Positions 2,917-27,183 of a DNA stretch of 41,598 nt are shown piece by piece. The translations under genes were made by a program, and so were the position numbers. Every line of letters starts with the position of its first letter. The stretch's first letter is position 1. The notes beneath the pieces are model-generated. The model was not told the DNA's origin, made no database searches, and saw only the letters and a program-made list of their open reading frames with translations. The DNA is from Christensenella sp. UBA941. Lineage in GTDB: Bacteria > Bacillota > Clostridia > Christensenellales > UBA941. Location of the stretch: contig DBDD01000334.1 of NCBI GenBank assembly GCA_002293365.1, forward strand, positions 1 to 41,598. The letters are read 5' to 3'.

Positions 2917-5576
2917 GCGGCCACCTTCTTCATTTCCGACAGCTCCGATTCAAGCCGTTTGATTCTATGAAAAAGAATCGGAATCATCATCGGCATGTCG
3001 ATTGTTTCCAACACAATTTCGCCCGTCTTAGTTGTTCGCGTAACGCCAAGCCACGGGCAACCCGTGACGGCTTTTTCCGCAATAAAACCGATATTTATTC
3101 GCTTGGAATCGTCAAAAATATAGTTGAATATCACAGGCTCGAAAGCTTCCCAATCATAATGAAAATCTTCAAGCAGTTTGATATTCTCTTTATATCGCTT
3201 AGAGGACGGCGTAGAATACAGCACTTGGCCCGAACTCTGATTCCATGCGAGATACATGTTGCCGCCACCGCTTTGCGGTATACTCGACGGGTGCAGATAG
3301 ACGTAATCGTTGCGCACGCTCAAGGCTGCAATGTTGCTGCCCAGTTCAATTCGCGGCGAGTCTAAGCCTAAAGAAGAGTACGCCTGTAGGTTCGCCGCCC
3401 CCGAAACGGAATAGAGTTTGGCGTAACCCCCAAAATCTAACTCGCCCGACGATTTTACCGTCAGTGATGGAGATGTAAGGCTGTTATTCGAGAGCGTAAA
3501 CCCGGCAATCGCGCCCTCGTTCGCCGTTACCTTGCCACTAAACGACCCACCGGCGGCAGATAAGGTTCCGCTAAATGTGCCGTCGGCCCCGTTCAAGTGC
3601 TTAACTTGTAGCGTGTCTACATCAATTCGCTCAGAATTGAGTTTTCCTGTGCTTATATTAGCGGCGTTGATATTCGTAATCGTCGCCTTGCTTGCGTCGA
3701 TTGTCCCTGTCGAGATATTCCCGCCGTTGATCGTCGTCTGCCCCGGCGTTGAAAGGTTCGTAAAACTGACAAGCCCTTTCATCTCGATCTTCTCGCTTGC
3801 AATCGCCGCTCCGTTCGCTCTAAGCTCGATGGTGCTTGACGTAGAATCGTTCGCGACGGAAAGCGTAATGCTTTTCGCATACGCCGCGACCTCCGCGACA
3901 TTGCCCTCGATATCGCTAATCTGCGATTTGAAGCCATCAACGGTGACTTCGAGTATGTGCATCGCCCGTTTCTGCGCAAAAACACGCCGATTCTGCGCGT
4001 TCACCGCTGGCCGCAACGGTTCGCCCGTGTTCTGAATTTCGGCGCGCGCACTCTTGCCGTTCCATGTGATGGATTGCGAGTAGATAGGCAGTTGGTATAT
4101 CTGCCCGTCAAGGTCAAACGAAACAATATCCCCGGCCTGTAGCGCCCAATTCGTCCGTACCCGCGTACTGATTGGCGAGAAGTCCGGGAACGCGGTTAAG
4201 CGGTTGTAAATCGGAACCGCCGCGACGCGAATGTCGTAATCGTCCGAGCCGTAAAGGAACGGGTTGTCCAGCGTCACATATGCGTTCTTGCCCGTATCGC
4301 CAACAATAACGCCGATATCGTTCTGCGCGCTCTTGACTTGCAGTTTATCGATGCGCGAAACACTGTACTCCGCGATATCCGCGCTGAACCAGTGGCCGTC
4401 ATTGAACACCACAGGCTGTTGCGTAAACCATGCCAGTTCAACCCCGCCGTCCCGCGTCATTCGCGCAATCGAACACGCGGCTTCCGCAATCCGGCCTAAT
4501 ATCTCGCGGGCACTGACTTGATCTAGCTCTGTCGGCTTTTCGGCATACATGCGCGTCGAGTTGATAAAACTGATCGTCGCTTGCGGTACGCCGACGAACT
4601 GGCATAGCTTCGTGAAGATGCTGCCTAAACTGATCGGCCAAGTCAGGCTGTTCCAAAAGTCCGTCGCGTCTGTGTCGAATTTACGCATGTGGTCATGGCC
4701 GACGATTGAGATTAATTGCACTTTGCGTTTCTTGGGCGTATCGACATTGAACACGCCAAGCTTGACGTACTCATATTTCTCATACGAACCATCGGCCCAA
4801 AACTCATGCAGCACGTCGGCGTTCCAGCTCATGCCGCGACGATCTGCGGCCCATCGTGCGGCTTTGCGGCGCATGAAGGGGTTAAGGTCGGGAAGGTCGA
4901 TGAAGCTGTTCCATGTGAACACCCTCATTTCGTCCCACTTTTTCGGTTCTAGCGTTTTCCACGATTCAAGCGCGGTCGCCGGTACAAGAACGCCCTGTAT
5001 ATCATCCCATTTACTTGTGGCTGTTTCGTCCCACGTCTGGCCCGTCAGCATCGACCATATGCGCCCGTCAACCCATGTCGCTTTCCAAGCTTCGCCATCG
5101 GGTGCAAAGCAGTATACACCATTGCCGACGGTCAGAATAGAGTGAACAGCCCACGGCGGCTGCGCGGTCGGCGCGTACCCGTTGATGGTCAGGTATGGCC
5201 GCGACGACCAGCCCTCGAAGCGCAATTCTTGATTAGCGCCGAATCTCATTACCGTCATGCAGTTGGCGATGGAGTATGCGATACCGCCCGATTCTGTCAT
5301 GGCGGCGAGTTGGGCTGTGCATGGGCCGAAGTCGAAAGAGTCTAGGAGGCGGTGGTCGTTGTTGATAGTGGCGGTTAATACGGAGGAAGGAGTAATGCCT
5401 ATCGTTAATTCCCTTTCCTCGCGGGGAATCAAATCCTCGACAAGCTTTACAACGTCGCCAGACTCTAAGTTGATATCTTCGTTGGTCAACAAGGTATCCC
5501 CGAACCTCAACAGTACACGAGTTTTCGGTGATTCGGATTGTGCGGCCTCATGAAATTTTACACTGGCCGGATACAT
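2913..5576 (-). CDS. tail-associated (Tal/tail-tip-like) protein with C-terminal S74-type intramolecular chaperone domain
   Basis: 887-aa ORF with RBS GGAGG. C-terminus SSKRYKENIKLL...GFIAEK matches the endosialidase/tail-fibre autoproteolytic chaperone signature (S-x-R-x-K-x-N-I). Sits after a Dit-like gene. Confidence 0.75.
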   Translation of the reverse strand: MYPASVKFHEAAQSESPKTRVLLRFGDTLLTNEDINLESGDVVKLVEDLIPREERELTIGITPSSVLTATINNDHRLLDSFDFGPCTAQLAAMTESGGIAYSIANCMTVMRFGANQELRFEGWSSRPYLTINGYAPTAQPPWAVHSILTVGNGVYCFAPDGEAWKATWVDGRIWSMLTGQTWDETATSKWDDIQGVLVPATALESWKTLEPKKWDEMRVFTWNSFIDLPDLNPFMRRKAARWAADRRGMSWNADVLHEFWADGSYEKYEYVKLGVFNVDTPKKRKVQLISIVGHDHMRKFDTDATDFWNSLTWPISLGSIFTKLCQFVGVPQATISFINSTRMYAEKPTELDQVSAREILGRIAEAACSIARMTRDGGVELAWFTQQPVVFNDGHWFSADIAEYSVSRIDKLQVKSAQNDIGVIVGDTGKNAYVTLDNPFLYGSDDYDIRVAAVPIYNRLTAFPDFSPISTRVRTNWALQAGDIVSFDLDGQIYQLPIYSQSITWNGKSARAEIQNTGEPLRPAVNAQNRRVFAQKRAMHILEVTVDGFKSQISDIEGNVAEVAAYAKSITLSVANDSTSSTIELRANGAAIASEKIEMKGLVSFTNLSTPGQTTINGGNISTGTIDASKATITNINAANISTGKLNSERIDVDTLQVKHLNGADGTFSGTLSAAGGSFSGKVTANEGAIAGFTLSNNSLTSPSLTVKSSGELDFGGYAKLYSVSGAANLQAYSSLGLDSPRIELGSNIAALSVRNDYVYLHPSSIPQSGGGNMYLAWNQSSGQVLYSTPSSKRYKENIKLLEDFHYDWEAFEPVIFNYIFDDSKRINIGFIAEKAVTGCPWLGVTRTTKTGEIVLETIDMPMMIPILFHRIKRLESELSEMKKVAA

Positions 5577-23528: not shown

Positions 23529-23726
23529 TTAGATATTAACCGTTATTTCACGCTTGCACCCTCGGCATTTAACCGAAAGATTCTGCACTTTTGTATCCTG
23601 CTCTACCGGGAATAATCGTTTCCCGCAGTACGGGCAGCAAAACCAATTGTCTACAATCAAATAGATTCCTTCTCTGCGAATATATTTGTTCACGCTCATT
23701 ATTGCATAAAATCTCATGCGCGTCAA
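23529..23726 (-). CDS. Cys_rich_KTR-type zinc-ribbon peptide (maximal ORF; true start probably internal)
   Basis: NWFCCPYCGKRLFPVEQDTKVQNLSVKCRGCKREITVNI. A TTG at 23660 follows GAAGGAA. The upstream part of the ORF overlaps a promoter-like sequence. Confidence 0.55.
   Translation of the reverse strand: MTRMRFYAIMSVNKYIRREGIYLIVDNWFCCPYCGKRLFPVEQDTKVQNLSVKCRGCKREITVNI
23698..23726 (-). promoter_or_regulatory. candidate promoter for the portal/head block
   Basis: Minus strand reads TTGACG-17 nt-AATAAT. Confidence 0.4.
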
Positions 23727-23787
23727 GCGATAAATCTATATGTTGTGTTTAACGTGAAACATAAGGCACAATATATTGATTTTCCTG

Positions 23788-23816
23788 TTGCGTTCGCGCC
23801 CAAAACACTGTATACT
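23788..23816 (+). promoter_or_regulatory. candidate plus-strand promoter of the non-coding unit
   Basis: TTGCGT-17 nt-TATACT. Confidence 0.45.
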
Positions 23817-23901
23817 TAAAGTGCGGTTTACCTCCTGAATGATGTCCGCTCCGTATTGCTCCTTTCGTGCGGGGCGGGCAACGTGTTATTAGTTCGTATA
23901 C

Positions 23902-23971
23902 GGGGTGTGGCTGGGCCTATCGCGTTGGTCAGCGCGTAGAAACTGCGGTTCAAATCCGTGGCACTCCACCA
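23902..23971 (+). ncRNA. tRNA-like module 1 (acceptor, T-arm and CCA present; no normal anticodon arm)
   Basis: Acceptor GGGGTGT/GCACTCC (5 Watson-Crick plus 2 GU). T-arm TGCGG-TTCAAAT-CCGTG. 3' ACCA. D-arm-like CGCG-TTGGTCAG-CGCG. Only 35 nt lie between the acceptor and the T stem. Confidence 0.45.
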
Positions 23972-24123
23972 GTGGCCGGGTAGCTCCCGGATGATTCGGG
24001 CGTAGCGGTTTACCCCGAAGAGAACAAAAATGCCCCGCCGAAAACGCGCTGATACGGACAGCCCCACCTCTTGCGAGTTGTACGGTTGCTCATGGCGCGA
24101 TAATCAAGCGGGGAACCGCACAT

Positions 24124-24199
24124 GCCAGTGTCGCCCAGTTGGCTAGGGAGGCCGTTTTGTAAGCGCAAAGCGGGGGTTCGAATCCCTCCACTGGCTCCA
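24124..24199 (+). tRNA. tRNA-like module 2; possible tRNA-Thr(UGU), but with a defective anticodon stem
   Basis: 76 nt with canonical spacing. Perfect acceptor GCCAGTG/CACTGGC. D-loop AGTTGGCTA. T-arm GGGGG-TTCGAAT-CCCTC. 3' TCCA. Loop TTTGTAA. Anticodon stem GCCGT/GCGCA pairs at only 3 of 5 positions. Confidence 0.45.
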
Positions 24200-24260
24200 C
24201 GCTTCCCTACCATGCGTAGGGCAAGTTGCTGAATACGCCGACAAAGCGTGTTCTGCAATC

Positions 24261-24326
24261 GCACATGTGGAAGTCGCGCCGGGGTTTAGCTGCCGGGGAA
24301 CGCGAGGGTATCGAACCAGCATGTGC
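24261..24326 (+). ncRNA. 66-nt multi-helix element
   Basis: Closing helix GCACATG/CATGTGC. Inner helices TCGCG/CGCGA and CCGG/CCGG. GGTATCGAACC is T-loop-like (GGTTCGATACC on the other strand). Confidence 0.35.
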
Positions 24327-24330
24327 TGAC

Positions 24331-24355
24331 CGCCGCGAAAGTGCGGCGCTTTTTA
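24331..24355 (+). terminator. intrinsic terminator (plus strand)
   Basis: CGCCGC-GAAAGT-GCGGCG followed by CTTTTTA. Confidence 0.65.
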
Positions 24356-24360
24356 TGCCG

Positions 24361-26040
24361 CTAAATACCCATCGCGGCCCGCGACATGACGGTAACTTTG
24401 TTCGTTCCGACGCCCCTTATCATATCCGTAACAATCGCCAGAGAATCGGGTGCGTCGTCGTTCTTGTTCTTACCCTTAATCTTGAAAGCGAAAACATTCT
24501 GCATGAATGTCTGGTATTCCTTACTCCGCTTGCCGTTCTCCAAGAAGTAAAACTCGCGGATTTCGGAGGCGCGGTCAACAATTCTGACCTCTTTCGCCGC
24601 GTCGTTCGGAGCGGCCTTATTTGTGATGTTTAGGCGGTATCCCTCCGTTTTTAGCTTTTCTTCAATCCAATCCTTATAATCAGCCGTCATTTTATTGGCC
24701 TCAAAGTGAGCGGCCTGTATGCCGTATTTCTTTATCTTCTCGACAATCAGCGGGCGCGTAATGTTCTTTTCCGCATCGCTGTAAACTACGTCATGGACGT
24801 AAACCGTGCCGTCATAATCAAAGCATATCGGAGCGGCCACAAAATCCCCGCCGCCCCAGCTCGGATCGACCGCCATAAAAATCCGATTCGGCTCTCCCGG
24901 CGGCAACACGCCGTTGTAATATAGCATATCGTCGGGAATAAATAAGGCCCCGCTCCGCTCGATGGGTTGTCCCATATATTGTGCCAACCAGCTCGCCATA
25001 TCATTATTGCGCTCATATGAAGCGCGGCGTCGGTGAAAGTATATGGTCGAGTAACCTACGCCGTAATCGTAATCAAAATTGCTTTCGTCGTTCTTGTCGA
25101 GCGCCGGGATATTGATTACCTCGTATCTGTGGCCTACGAATTTATCATCATTTGCGAGTAAATCCATTCTAAGTCCAGCGGGGTCTGCCTCTGCCCAGCG
25201 AGTGCCTACCCATAGTATTTTAGCTTGCTCTTTTGCGCGCGGCATGAGATTGTTGTCAACTTTGAACCATGCGGAGGCCAATCTGTCGGGACTTAGAGCC
25301 TCCTCGATGCCGCCGATCAGGTCGTCCGCCACTAAGAGGCCATTGCAATCACAGGCTCCATTGAGGGTTCCGTAGAGTGAGCGGCATGTTAGAGACGGAT
25401 AACGTTTTTTGCGGTCAATGTTAAGCGTTTCATCCTTCGCGTTCGTCTGTACCAGCTTCGCCGTCGGAAAAACATCATGCCATCCATACGTTGCGGGGTC
25501 ATTGATTATCTCCAACACGCCGCTATAGAGCGCCGACGTTATTGTGTCGCTGTAGGCGCTATACAAGTTTGAGGCTTCGGGATTCCTGCCGATTATCCAC
25601 GTTATGAAAAACATGAGCGCCGTCGTCTTGCCAACTCTCGTTGGCATTGAGACGAACATTTCATCGAGCGTACCGTCAACAAAGCCTTGCAGGTTGTCGA
25701 TAACACGCTTCATAATCCTGCGCCGGGGCAGATAGAAACGCTCCGATGGTTTGCGGTTCCACTCTAAAAAGATCAAGTAATCCTCTAGGTTTTCTTTCGC
25801 CCCATACAAATACGTCCGCTTCACCAACCCATTAAGCCTATCCACCGCATCAAACGACAACTCGCCCCCCGCCTTAACCGCCCCCGTCGCCATCTTCCGC
25901 ACTTCCCTATTGAGTTCGCGGGCAACGGCAACATCGCTTTCAGCCAGCACATAATCGAACAAGATTTCGAGCGGCTTGGGGTCAAACGGATTGCGCTGGA
26001 TATGGCGTTTTAGGGTGGCGATTTCTTGGGCGGTGCTCAT
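24361..26040 (-). CDS. terL: terminase large subunit
   Basis: Walker-A-like PTRVGKTT, with typical length and nuclease-half features. Likely ATG at 26040 (ATGA overlap). The track ORF extends to 26061. Confidence 0.9.
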   Translation of the reverse strand: MSTAQEIATLKRHIQRNPFDPKPLEILFDYVLAESDVAVARELNREVRKMATGAVKAGGELSFDAVDRLNGLVKRTYLYGAKENLEDYLIFLEWNRKPSERFYLPRRRIMKRVIDNLQGFVDGTLDEMFVSMPTRVGKTTALMFFITWIIGRNPEASNLYSAYSDTITSALYSGVLEIINDPATYGWHDVFPTAKLVQTNAKDETLNIDRKKRYPSLTCRSLYGTLNGACDCNGLLVADDLIGGIEEALSPDRLASAWFKVDNNLMPRAKEQAKILWVGTRWAEADPAGLRMDLLANDDKFVGHRYEVINIPALDKNDESNFDYDYGVGYSTIYFHRRRASYERNNDMASWLAQYMGQPIERSGALFIPDDMLYYNGVLPPGEPNRIFMAVDPSWGGGDFVAAPICFDYDGTVYVHDVVYSDAEKNITRPLIVEKIKKYGIQAAHFEANKMTADYKDWIEEKLKTEGYRLNITNKAAPNDAAKEVRIVDRASEIREFYFLENGKRSKEYQTFMQNVFAFKIKGKNKNDDAPDSLAIVTDMIRGVGTNKVTVMSRAAMGI

Positions 26041-26219
26041 GCTTGCGTTCTCCGATTCCAAGCGCTTTCCGGGTCAATGCCGCCGCTGTCCGTAAATCCC
26101 GCGAACGTCACAACCGCGCCGCACTCGACGTTTAGGCAGCATACACCTACAATATCGTCGGTTTCTCGCAATTCAGCCTCGCTCCCACAAAACGGGCAAG
26201 GCTTTAGCTCTACGCTCAT
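26037..26219 (-). CDS. Lar-family (restriction alleviation-like) zinc-ribbon protein
   Basis: MSVELKPCPFCGSEAEL...CLNVECGAVV...ESAWNRR. ATGA overlaps at both ends. The track ORF 26037..26432 is over-extended. Confidence 0.65.
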   Translation of the reverse strand: MSVELKPCPFCGSEAELRETDDIVGVCCLNVECGAVVTFAGFTDSGGIDPESAWNRRTQA

Positions 26220-26617
26220 GCCCGTACCCTCCGATTCCAAGCGTCCACGGCGCCGTCCTCGCTTCCGTACAACGCGCCCGTATTCGCCTTGCACTTTTCG
26301 CACATGACGTACCATTGCGGCTCGTCTAAGGCCAGCAGATTCCCGTATCTGCCTGTGTGCGCCGTGCCGCCGCAGAACGGACACGCCAAAAGGCCAGATT
26401 CGCCTTGCGGCCCCGGTTCGCCCTCTGGACAACCGTTACCGAGCGGTACGATTTTAGACTCTCTCCGTCCGTCTGGCGGTTCGCGCTTCGATGCCAGCGG
26501 GGCGAGACAGCAATCCGCGCAACCCGGCACACGCCCCATGCAGCCGCCGGTACGACTATATGCGCCGAACGGACAGCTGCCGCAACCGGCGGGCAATTCA
26601 TCAACAAATATCTTCAT
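26216..26617 (-). CDS. Cys-rich protein with C-terminal Lar-like domain
   Basis: ACPFCGGTAHTG...VMCEKCKANTG...AVDAWNRR. ATGA overlap with the sigma gene stop. Confidence 0.6.
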   Translation of the reverse strand: MKIFVDELPAGCGSCPFGAYSRTGGCMGRVPGCADCCLAPLASKREPPDGRRESKIVPLGNGCPEGEPGPQGESGLLACPFCGGTAHTGRYGNLLALDEPQWYVMCEKCKANTGALYGSEDGAVDAWNRRVRA

Positions 26618-27183
26618 GCTGTTTTCTCTCGCTCCTTGTCGATTTCGTATTTCTTGCGGATTTTATGGATAATATGATTTATATTGGCGCGGGTACAGCC
26701 TCGAATCTTCGCAATATCCTTTTGCGGTAAGCCAGACAGCGCCATCATCAAGATTTGTTTTTCAGTATTGGTAAGGCGAGCGAAAAGCGAATCGTAGCAA
26801 GCGCCGAGAACATCGCTCTCAACGTCTACGTCCGCAACAAGCGTATCGGCAAGGGTCATGTCGCCCGATTCGCCTACTGGCGCGTCAAGGCTTGACAATT
26901 GCTTGTAGAAGAATGTACTGCCGCACTTTAGCGGCTTGATTAACGCATTCCCTTTGCACTGATACGTCCTAACATGTCCGTCGATGTACGATACGGCAAA
27001 TGACGAAAACGCCGCTCCGTTCTCTGTGTCGAATCTGTCTATAGCAAGAATCAGCCCAACGCAACCAGCTTGAAATAAATCGTCATCATGAGCGCCATAA
27101 TTAAGCTGCATCACTCTGGATGATACGAGCGGTATATTCGATTCGATAAACGCCGCTCTATCGGCTGGCGAGTTAAACGTCAT
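26614..27183 (-). CDS. sigma-70 family RNA polymerase sigma factor (phage-encoded)
   Basis: Region 2-like DDLFQAGCVGLILAIDRFD...FSSFAVSYIDGHV. Region 4 HTH is EKQILMMALSGLPQKDIAKIRGCTRANINHIIHKIRKK. Confidence 0.8.
   Translation of the reverse strand: MTFNSPADRAAFIESNIPLVSSRVMQLNYGAHDDDLFQAGCVGLILAIDRFDTENGAAFSSFAVSYIDGHVRTYQCKGNALIKPLKCGSTFFYKQLSSLDAPVGESGDMTLADTLVADVDVESDVLGACYDSLFARLTNTEKQILMMALSGLPQKDIAKIRGCTRANINHIIHKIRKKYEIDKEREKTA

Follow-up and report, generated by a model that had tools for sequence, protein, structure and literature searches.

The window analysed here is a 41.6-kb phage contig of 51.7% GC (the whole stretch of 41,598 nucleotides, DBDD01000334.1, from Christensenella sp. 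UBA941). Between its terL (24361-26061, minus strand; PF22530) and an SPP1-type portal gene (PF05133, E 9e-51) lies a non-coding gap which, as its sequence supports well, is a small plus-strand tRNA cassette, putatively transcribed independently, inserted at a variable terL-portal junction and specifying two small RNAs. One of them is a threonine tRNA with the anticodon UGU, tRNA-Thr(UGU), and the other is a compact tRNA-like RNA of 70 nt. Overall, the gap is probably best explained as a tRNA cassette combining this tRNA-Thr with a compact alanine-type tRNA mimic that is predicted not to decode. The original prediction, made from the letters of the DNA, had described a plus-strand RNA unit lying antisense within the late operon, which our analysis supports as a predicted unit. 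It had further proposed that two tRNA-like modules both keep the acceptor/T-arm/CCA half and lose the decoding half; this holds for the compact RNA, a member of a conserved structured family, and fails for the second module, which is an ordinary tRNA.

A compact alanine-type tRNA-like RNA

From 5' to 3', the compact RNA reads GGGGUGU-GGCUGGGCC-UAU-CGCG-UUGGUCAG-CGCG-UAGAAAC-UGCGG-UUCAAAU-CCGUG-GCACUCC-ACCA. Its 7-bp acceptor contains G3:U70 and is followed by A73 and an encoded CCA, which together form the alanine identity set. A mini D-arm (GGCUGGGCC, with GGC/GCC around UGG) directly abuts the acceptor, the central hairpin consists of 4 bp and a loop of 8 nt (5 bp and 6 nt when U.G is counted as the closing pair), and a GAAAC linker in the place of the variable loop leads into a standard T-arm (UGCGG-UUCAAAU-CCGUG). 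The acceptor, the T-arm, the encoded ACCA and the lack of room for a canonical anticodon arm had all been listed by the original prediction and were recovered as described.

ARAGORN reported the compact RNA solely at the relaxed setting -ps90, as a tRNA with a 2-nt anticodon, and Rfam searches at E<=10 returned no family for it (tRNA, tmRNA, YrlA, ROOL and GOLLD included), even on an 84-nt slice. It has neither a covariance match to the tRNA family RF00005 nor the canonical anticodon arm of 5 bp and 7 nt, and it likewise falls outside the clan of transfer-messenger RNA (tmRNA; RF00023, defined by 5' GGGG..UUCGAC and 3' GGAC-T-arm-CUCCACCA), with no match at E<=10. One property of the tmRNA tRNA-like domain (TLD) is nevertheless read from its sequence, namely an acceptor of alanine identity (G3:U70, A73, CCA) on a molecule that lacks an anticodon. 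As for an mRNA-like domain with a tag reading frame, ARAGORN at default settings found no tmRNA, and spurious permuted calls appeared at -ps70/80 only. A permuted or two-piece tmRNA was rejected, since the acceptor closes within 70 nt.

A covariance model, R1, was built from two types of relatives only (the enterobacterial and the L202 types described below) with the window sequence excluded. When R1 was run over both strands of the window with filters off, the compact RNA scored 59.6 bits (E about 8e-16), and the next match, the tRNA-Thr, scored 17.8 bits, with no other match of note. Judged by a model of other members only, the compact RNA belongs to a compact alanine-type tRNA-like family, and the existence of this conserved family in unrelated phages is well supported by sequence. 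Furthermore, descent of the compact RNA from a tRNA-Ala appears likely, because GAAAC is also the variable loop of phage tRNA-Ala genes (in L168-L170) and because phage tRNA-Ala(UGC) genes with compact D-arms exist.

Relatives in unrelated phages

Relatives were retrieved by pattern scans of IMG/VR for the architecture of the compact RNA, most of them with patterns that demanded GGGG...CTCCACCA. The enterobacterial type (GGGGTGTGGCTGGGCCTGCATGGACTGATCACCCATGAAAACTTCGGTTCGAATCCGGAGCACTCCACCA) has a length of 70 nt. About 20 viral contigs carry it, three single-base variants included; E. coli PEC148 and the cultured E. coli phage HK639 (HM208537.1, 33694-33763, minus strand) carry it too, and at these two sites no feature is annotated in GenBank or by PGAP. 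In HK639 and the enterobacterial prophages its setting is the pL early-left operon, 3' of a putL-like antiterminator and just upstream of variable small open reading frames (ORFs). The element is rare, with one of 5426 complete E. coli genomes carrying it; matches in 115 E. coli genomes were to the flanks.

A second type, of 72 nt, occurs in L166 and identically in L171. The third, L202/L220, again of 70 nt, was found by a pattern constraining only GGCTGGGCC and the T-loop, and L202 keeps the same acceptor including G3:U70 though the acceptor was unconstrained in its search. Its hairpin stem (CGCAG/CUGCG) and T-stem (GUUGG/CCAAC) are wholly re-paired, its loop is AAUGAUCAA, and its 3' end is GCAA instead of ACCA; its flanks have no resemblance to known phages, and the phage is unrelated apart from the element. 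More distant members are L137 (43 bits), L174 (a metagenome-assembled genome, MAG, of Planctomycetota, in which the element stands immediately upstream of tRNA-Pro and tRNA-Val) and L175 (a Dehalococcoidia MAG).

The 70-nt element gave no blastn match among PLSDB plasmids, an exact 27-nt pattern had no match in IMG/VR, a first pattern scan of genome contigs returned 0 matches, and a scan of JGI metagenomes yielded nothing beyond a duplicate of L166. No description of the family was found in the literature searched by sequence and keyword, the coverage of which is incomplete. An attP or other integration-site remnant was also considered as an identity for the compact RNA and discarded: both acceptor halves are present, it does not lie beside int, and the bacterial copies found are two distant ones only (in MAGs, by a relaxed scan).

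Two side observations were made in the contigs of these scans. L166 (and L171) also encodes a full, genuine phage tmRNA at 3948-4273 (minus strand; RF00023 90.7 bits; ARAGORN tag DKTYISERAAA), and the family member at 3344-3415 (minus strand) lies 532 nt downstream of it on the same strand, with no long same-strand ORF between. In addition, L189 (7899-7950 and 10927-10978), L200, L209 and L213 contain another compact tRNA-like element which has GGCUGGGCC and a non-alanine acceptor (CCGGC/GCCGG); it is present in two copies in one viral contig and has no R1 score.

Covariation and the fate of the stems

A covariation check, of the kind that the original prediction had called for, was run on the homologues of the compact RNA and revealed compensatory changes. 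A model-guided alignment of ten sequences (A3) replaced a MAFFT alignment (A1) that had misplaced the central hairpin. In A3, 96.5% of cells are paired and 9/20 stem pairs have changed on both sides; the covariation reaches 0.482, against 0.154 in shuffles (0/500 reach the observed value) and at most 0.142 with slid partners, figures that lean towards structure since A3 is fitted to the model. All four helices are kept by compensatory change in this alignment, and the complete swapping of central hairpin and T-stem sequences between lineages is plain by eye. Acceptor pairs 1-4 including G3:U70, GGCUGGGCC, (G/A)AAAC and the T-loop are fixed across lineages, and acceptor pairs 5:68 and 7:66, the T-stem and the entire hairpin stem vary. 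In every type, a cloverleaf-like fold lies within 1-5 kcal/mol of the minimum free energy (MFE).

These data bear directly on the thought that the gap might be a decaying phage tRNA cluster, with one working tRNA, a tRNA-Ala pseudogene and unrecognisable remnants under no selection. Such decay would be in keeping with a tRNA-Thr that has three stem mismatches and a modest score, with the weak structure of the spacers and with the closest relatives, which are without the unit. It is quite improbable, however, given that the compact RNA is conserved with compensatory changes in phages sharing nothing else, and that five contigs from different samples carry the window's terL, the one contig read being 100% identical over the gap (L010, Logan SRR5322548).

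The hairpin, in contrast to the fixed parts of the molecule, varies in its geometry, with stems of 4-7 bp and loops of 5-14 nt. The loop of the window copy has 6/8 nt and that of the enterobacterial type 9 nt; L166 combines a 5-nt loop with a 7-bp stem, and the loop of L174 measures 14 nt. This variability argues against canonical decoding. Within the loop, the hexamer is UGGUCA in the window copy and UGAUCA in two lineages that differ in their stems, each of the two hexamers being self-complementary (UGGUCA via G.U pairs); the loop is UGGAUCCA in L174 and UCUAGA in L137. As far as the sequences go, the hexamer points to one of three things, that is, loop-loop pairing, a sequence-specific partner or a residual anticodon-loop function.

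A non-decoding mimic or a decoding tRNA

The residual function leads to a competing explanation, in which the compact RNA is an unusual decoding tRNA: with its compact D-arm and alanine charge, it would read ACY codons or a quadruplet through the 8-nt loop (a U33-like U, then GGU, C, A and G), relatives would read AUY (GAU) or UAG (CUA), and its role would be recoding, mistranslation or frameshifting. Several observations speak for it. At default settings, tRNA-Ile(GAU) is the ARAGORN call for the enterobacterial and L202 types and tRNA(CUA) that for L137, the stems covary around a loop N-U-G-R-U-C-A that stays conserved, and some phage tRNA-Ala genes combine a similarly compact D-arm with a perfect UGC loop; moreover, frameshift suppressors such as sufJ are known, a tRNA-Thr(GGU) with an 8-nt loop. 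On the other hand, loop length is not conserved (5-14 nt), C would fall at position 37, which is a purine in natural elongator tRNAs, three lineages have a mismatch at the loop-closing pair, the Rfam tRNA model gives no match at E<=10, and an RNA charged with alanine but bearing an Ile or Thr anticodon would cause mistranslation of the phage's own proteins. We therefore regard decoding as unlikely, and the window copy, with a loop one nucleotide shorter than the enterobacterial one, looks the least likely decoder among those types.

A trans-acting role as a non-decoding mimic or decoy is the mechanism we favour, if only tentatively. Alanyl-tRNA synthetase (AlaRS) reads the acceptor stem only, as is established for G3:U70 minihelices and for tmRNA. 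Because of this known behaviour of AlaRS and tmRNA, the compact RNA, in which the sequence determinants are present, should be processed as a tRNA and should serve as a substrate for alanine charging. In the scenario that we envisage, RNase P would cut the precursor and the 3' end would be trimmed, upon which the host AlaRS would charge the 70-nt RNA with alanine. Without a usable anticodon loop, the charged RNA would then mimic an aminoacyl-tRNA in trans but would not decode. It would be a competitor or decoy where a host factor recognises tRNA by its acceptor/T-arm half, candidates for this factor being a tRNA-targeting defence toxin and the ribosome-rescue machinery. The self-complementary loop (UGGUCA here, UGAUCA in relatives) may additionally mediate loop-loop pairing.

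Another use of the fold would be as a processing signal only, a "tRNA punctuation" cut by RNase P and 3' nucleases with the excised RNA functionless. The HK639-type element does belong to the pL operon, where putL or an ORF flanks it on one side and the ribosome-binding site (RBS) of the next ORF on the other, and T4 tRNA clusters do hold tRNA-like stable RNAs that are processed along with the tRNAs. RNase P recognition, however, needs neither G3:U70 nor the invariant GGCUGGGCC nor the conserved UGRUCA loop, and in the window no plus-strand gene follows downstream, where there are only a tRNA and a terminator, so that we consider this reading improbable.

Several facts also weigh against the cassette with a non-decoding alanine mimic. 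The conservation of G3:U70, A73 and CCA is partly imposed by the GGGG...CTCCACCA patterns, and L202, the sole independent test of acceptor conservation, has G73 and no encoded CCA. Known lineages of the family number only about six or seven. Three lineages whose stems differ have all kept the hexamer UGRUCA, for which a decoy built purely on the acceptor half would have no need; the compact RNA is without the tmRNA UCGAC/GGAC motifs and has no RF00023 score, which weakens an SmpB-linked role. The default ARAGORN calls of the enterobacterial and L202 types as tRNA-Ile(GAU) and of L137 as a CUA suppressor mean that the relatives may decode. Finally, promoter-like sites in the region are at chance level, 3 having been found where 1.9 +/- 1.4 are expected from shuffles.

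The threonine tRNA and the remainder of the cassette

The coordinates of the cassette and of its neighbouring divergent unit are collected in Table 1.

Table 1. Features in and beside the terL-portal gap (positions in the 41,598-nt window).
Feature	Position	Strand	Evidence and remarks
Two overlapping candidate sigma-70-type promoters	23749..23816	+	TTAACG-17-TATATT (23749-23777, 9/12); TTGCGT-17-TATACT (23788-23816, 8/12)
Leader hairpin	23843..23880	+	14 bp, four of them G.U; loop UGCUCCUUUC holds the second CU-rich box
Compact alanine-identity tRNA-like RNA, 70 nt	23902..23971	+	Model R1, 59.6 bits; covariation in A3; ARAGORN at -ps90 only
Spacer 1	23972..24123	+	z -1.57 as a whole; hairpins 23976-23990 and 23995-24019 at z -1.8 and -2.1; no Rfam match
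tRNA-Thr(UGU) with encoded CCA	24124..24199	+	ARAGORN at default settings; Rfam RF00005, 46.8 bits against a gathering score of 29
Spacer 2	24200..24330	+	z -1.93 as a whole; hairpin 24205-24221; 66-nt element 24261-24326
Intrinsic terminator of the cassette	24331..24355	+	Stem of 7 bp, 6 of them GC; loop of 4 nt; CTTTTTAT tail; terL stop codon 6 nt away
Neighbouring divergent unit	23532..23726	-	Promoter-like site 23726-23698, then 43-aa zinc-ribbon gene 23532-23660; sets the left edge of the gap

The second module had been proposed as another mimic unable to decode. Every feature listed for it was verified, including an anticodon stem with 3/5 pairs: mismatches affect 27:43 (G.A), 28:42 (C.C) and one D-stem pair, and the acceptor (G1-C72, C2-G71), the T-arm and the 7-nt anticodon loop UUUGUAA (with U33 and a purine at 37) are perfect. 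The mimic claim nevertheless fails, because both ARAGORN and Rfam score the module as an ordinary tRNA-Thr(UGU), an outcome that the original prediction had named, for both modules together, among its refutations. Its Rfam score falls in the lower part of the range of 38-69 bits spanned by the phage tRNA array in L022. It is, judging from these features, a somewhat weakened yet ordinary phage tRNA that is probably functional despite its weak anticodon stem.

As to transcription, the promoter TTGCGT-17-TATACT of the original prediction is present as a sequence, but with 8/12 it stays below the threshold of our scan, which prefers the overlapping TTAACG-17-TATATT; the cassette promoter is a plausible candidate. 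The plus-strand intrinsic terminator was confirmed by the terminator scan, in which no minus-strand terminator was found within the unit; read on the minus strand, the same hairpin has no T-run after it. It had also been suggested that the unit gates read-through from terL into the head genes. The convergent arrangement is the sole sequence feature in its favour, and we regard gating as unsupported.

The leader (23817-23901) folds better than its shuffles, with an MFE of -29.6 against -21.0 +/- 2.9 kcal/mol (z -2.98), and its hairpin would form in the plus-strand RNA only, since four pairs are G.U. This stronger local 14-bp hairpin uses GCGGGGC and competes with the proposed long-range helix between 23869-23875 and 24032-24038. 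Both CU-rich boxes, ACCTCCT and GCTCCTTT, are present as had been noted. The first (ACCUCCU, 23830-23836) is identical on the plus strand to the anti-Shine-Dalgarno core of 16S rRNA and reads AGGAGGU on the minus strand; a role of the two boxes as minus-strand RBS was set aside, as no start codon follows on that strand.

The spacers offer less. The 66-nt element with a T-loop-like motif folds like its shuffles (z -0.97) and matches neither tRNA nor Rfam nor R1, and the remaining hairpins of the spacers reach marginal values only (z -1.8 to -2.5, against z -0.6 to +1.1 in coding controls). Spacer 1 probably contains structures for processing or spacing, and the simplest view of the leader and spacer hairpins is that they serve the processing or stability of the precursor.

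The original prediction had likened the unit to the large ornate RNAs of the ROOL and GOLLD kind. Taken in that way, the whole 0.53 kb would be one ornate RNA, of such a class or a new one, with two decoding-dead tRNA modules and a role in gating late transcription; one candidate promoter region, one terminator and a fold of the whole unit slightly better than shuffles (z -1.94) would suit it. Nothing further indicates a single large RNA, and we judge it highly improbable. With Rfam 15, neither the window at gathering score nor the gap at E<=10 on both strands gave a match to ROOL, GOLLD, tmRNA or Y-RNA-like families or to any large RNA; module (ii), as the tRNA-Thr was first numbered, is a normal tRNA; the compact RNA stands alone in other phages without the surrounding sequence; and no spacer homologue was found by blastn against INPHARED or among the terL and portal relatives.

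Locus and neighbouring genes

The gap had been described as running from 23727 to 24360. Its non-coding nature stands: its ORFs have zero Pfam or PHROG matches, no gene was placed there by the gene caller on L010, which comes from another sample and has the same sequence over the whole gap, and the earlier claim that it holds no credible ORF is upheld. The left edge, in contrast, moves to about 23661, owing to a 43-amino-acid zinc-ribbon gene (23532-23660, minus strand) with a TTG start at 23660, an RBS AGAAGGA and a phrog_5602 match (E 4e-7), which replaces the 65-codon ORF 23529-23726. A homologue is located upstream of the portal gene in L173. The minus-strand promoter-like site predicted for the portal block was confirmed just upstream of the zinc-ribbon gene, as TTGACG-17-AATAAT with 10/12 and a TG.

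The unit itself gave no blastn match among INPHARED phages and is missing from the IMG/VR terL relatives L001-L009, from the closest terL relatives L011 and L012 and from the closest portal relatives L172 and L173. What stands at the same junction in the closest relatives by terL and portal is a tRNA-Pro, small ORFs or nothing at all, and because the unit is absent from them, it is best seen as an insertion at a variable site. In L012, the closest relative (69% terL identity), a tRNA-Pro(UGG) at 3394-3468 stands just after terL on the same strand; upstream of terL, L002 carries Thr/Gln tRNAs (2403-2725) and L003 Gln/Ser/Asn tRNAs (2290-2762). The flanks of terL look like a hot spot for tRNA gene insertion, to judge from these gene orders.

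Two further features of the neighbourhood were recorded. The portal gene starts at about 23441, and the stretch between it and the zinc-ribbon gene contains a very strong hairpin of the terminator type, with an 18-bp stem and a T-run, at 23509-23470 (minus strand). L173 likewise has a similar hairpin and T-run after its zinc-ribbon gene; terminator-like hairpins before the portal gene suggest that expression of the head genes requires either antitermination or a separate late promoter. Immediately upstream of terL, at 26037-27183 (minus strand), are two tandem Lar-like zinc-ribbon genes (restriction-alleviation, PF14354) and a sigma-70-family gene (PF04542/PF08281).

Comparison with known tRNA-like RNAs

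Among known molecules, tRNA-Ala, including the phage form with a compact D-arm, shares with the compact RNA G1-C72, G2-C71, G3:U70, A73 and CCA, a 5-bp T-stem with a UUCAAAU loop, a short D-arm with a GG dinucleotide and, in the phage genes of L168-L170, the GAAAC variable loop. Unlike tRNA-Ala, the compact RNA is without a 7-nt NGC anticodon loop, its D-arm is a 3-bp stem with a UGG loop abutting the acceptor, and it has no Rfam tRNA match. As a side observation, very short tRNA-Ala(UGC)-like genes were seen in viral contigs, of 59 nt (L058, L068, L081, L134) or 62-63 nt (L037, L042, L055, L101, L104), with a 7-bp G3:U70 acceptor, a canonical CUUGCAA-type anticodon loop, a T-arm and apparently no D-arm.

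The tmRNA tRNA-like domain and the 67-nt TLD-only mini-tmRNAs resemble the compact RNA in their alanine acceptor, the lack of an anticodon, the reduced D region, the T-arm and the phage-encoded origin. The compact RNA differs in having neither the P2a motifs UUCGAC...GGAC nor an mRNA-like domain, and RF00023 gives the marine mini-tmRNAs 56-64 bits while matching the compact RNA nowhere at E<=10. These mini-tmRNAs, of 62-80 nt, were noticed in marine and environmental viral contigs L013-L029 (L013 7487-7553, L017 2559-2625, L028 607-686) and further in L040, L052, L061, L071, L087, L097 and L100. They consist of 5' GGGG..UCGAC and 3' GGAC-T-arm-CUCCACCA with a covarying short hairpin (CUUGGU/ACUAAG versus CCCGGU/ACUGGG) and no mRNA-like domain; those scanned (L013, L015, L017, L027, L028, L029) exceed the tmRNA gathering score of 47 with about 300 model positions deleted. 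RAGATH-24 RNA matches were seen on two of the contigs (L013 5029-5100, 49.9 bits; L017 5205-5312, 80.1 bits).

Species 1 and species 2 RNAs of T4 (rnaC, rnaD) are, like the compact RNA, small stable RNAs inside a phage tRNA cluster with tRNA-like acceptor/T-arm features, but they measure 119-139 nt, have no G3:U70 acceptor and share no sequence similarity with it. YrlA, mascRNA and the tRNA-like structures of plant viruses mimic the top half of tRNA and are handled by tRNA enzymes without decoding. None of them gave an Rfam match to the compact RNA above noise (mascRNA 12 bits, E 3.6), their architecture and context differ, and YrlA has no encoded aminoacylatable CCA end. ROOL and GOLLD RNAs are often found in prophages near tRNA genes; the gap matches neither in Rfam 15 at gathering score or E<=10, and there is no sign of a large conserved fold.

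Significance

For genome annotation, members of this family are missed, or are called tRNA-Ile, tRNA-Pro or tRNA-Pyl by ARAGORN. The HK639 member sits in the first RNA made from pL of a cultured E. coli phage, which makes the function of the family directly testable. Should the 70-nt RNA prove to be made and alanylated, tmRNA would no longer be the only natural class of non-decoding alanyl-tRNA mimic, and the second class would be one that is borne by phages. More speculatively, and with the chances clearly against it, phages of unrelated hosts may possess a dedicated class of alanine-charged, anticodon-less tRNA mimics, comprising the GGCUGGGCC family and, in parallel, the TLD-only mini-tmRNAs, which would enter the host aminoacyl-tRNA pool through the anticodon-blind AlaRS. 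Their target would then be ribosome rescue or the immunity directed at tRNAs, and they might work as dimers paired through the self-complementary UGAUCA/UGGUCA loop. Such a class, if true, would add a new sort of RNA-based counter-measure, or of translation modulator, to the phage repertoire.

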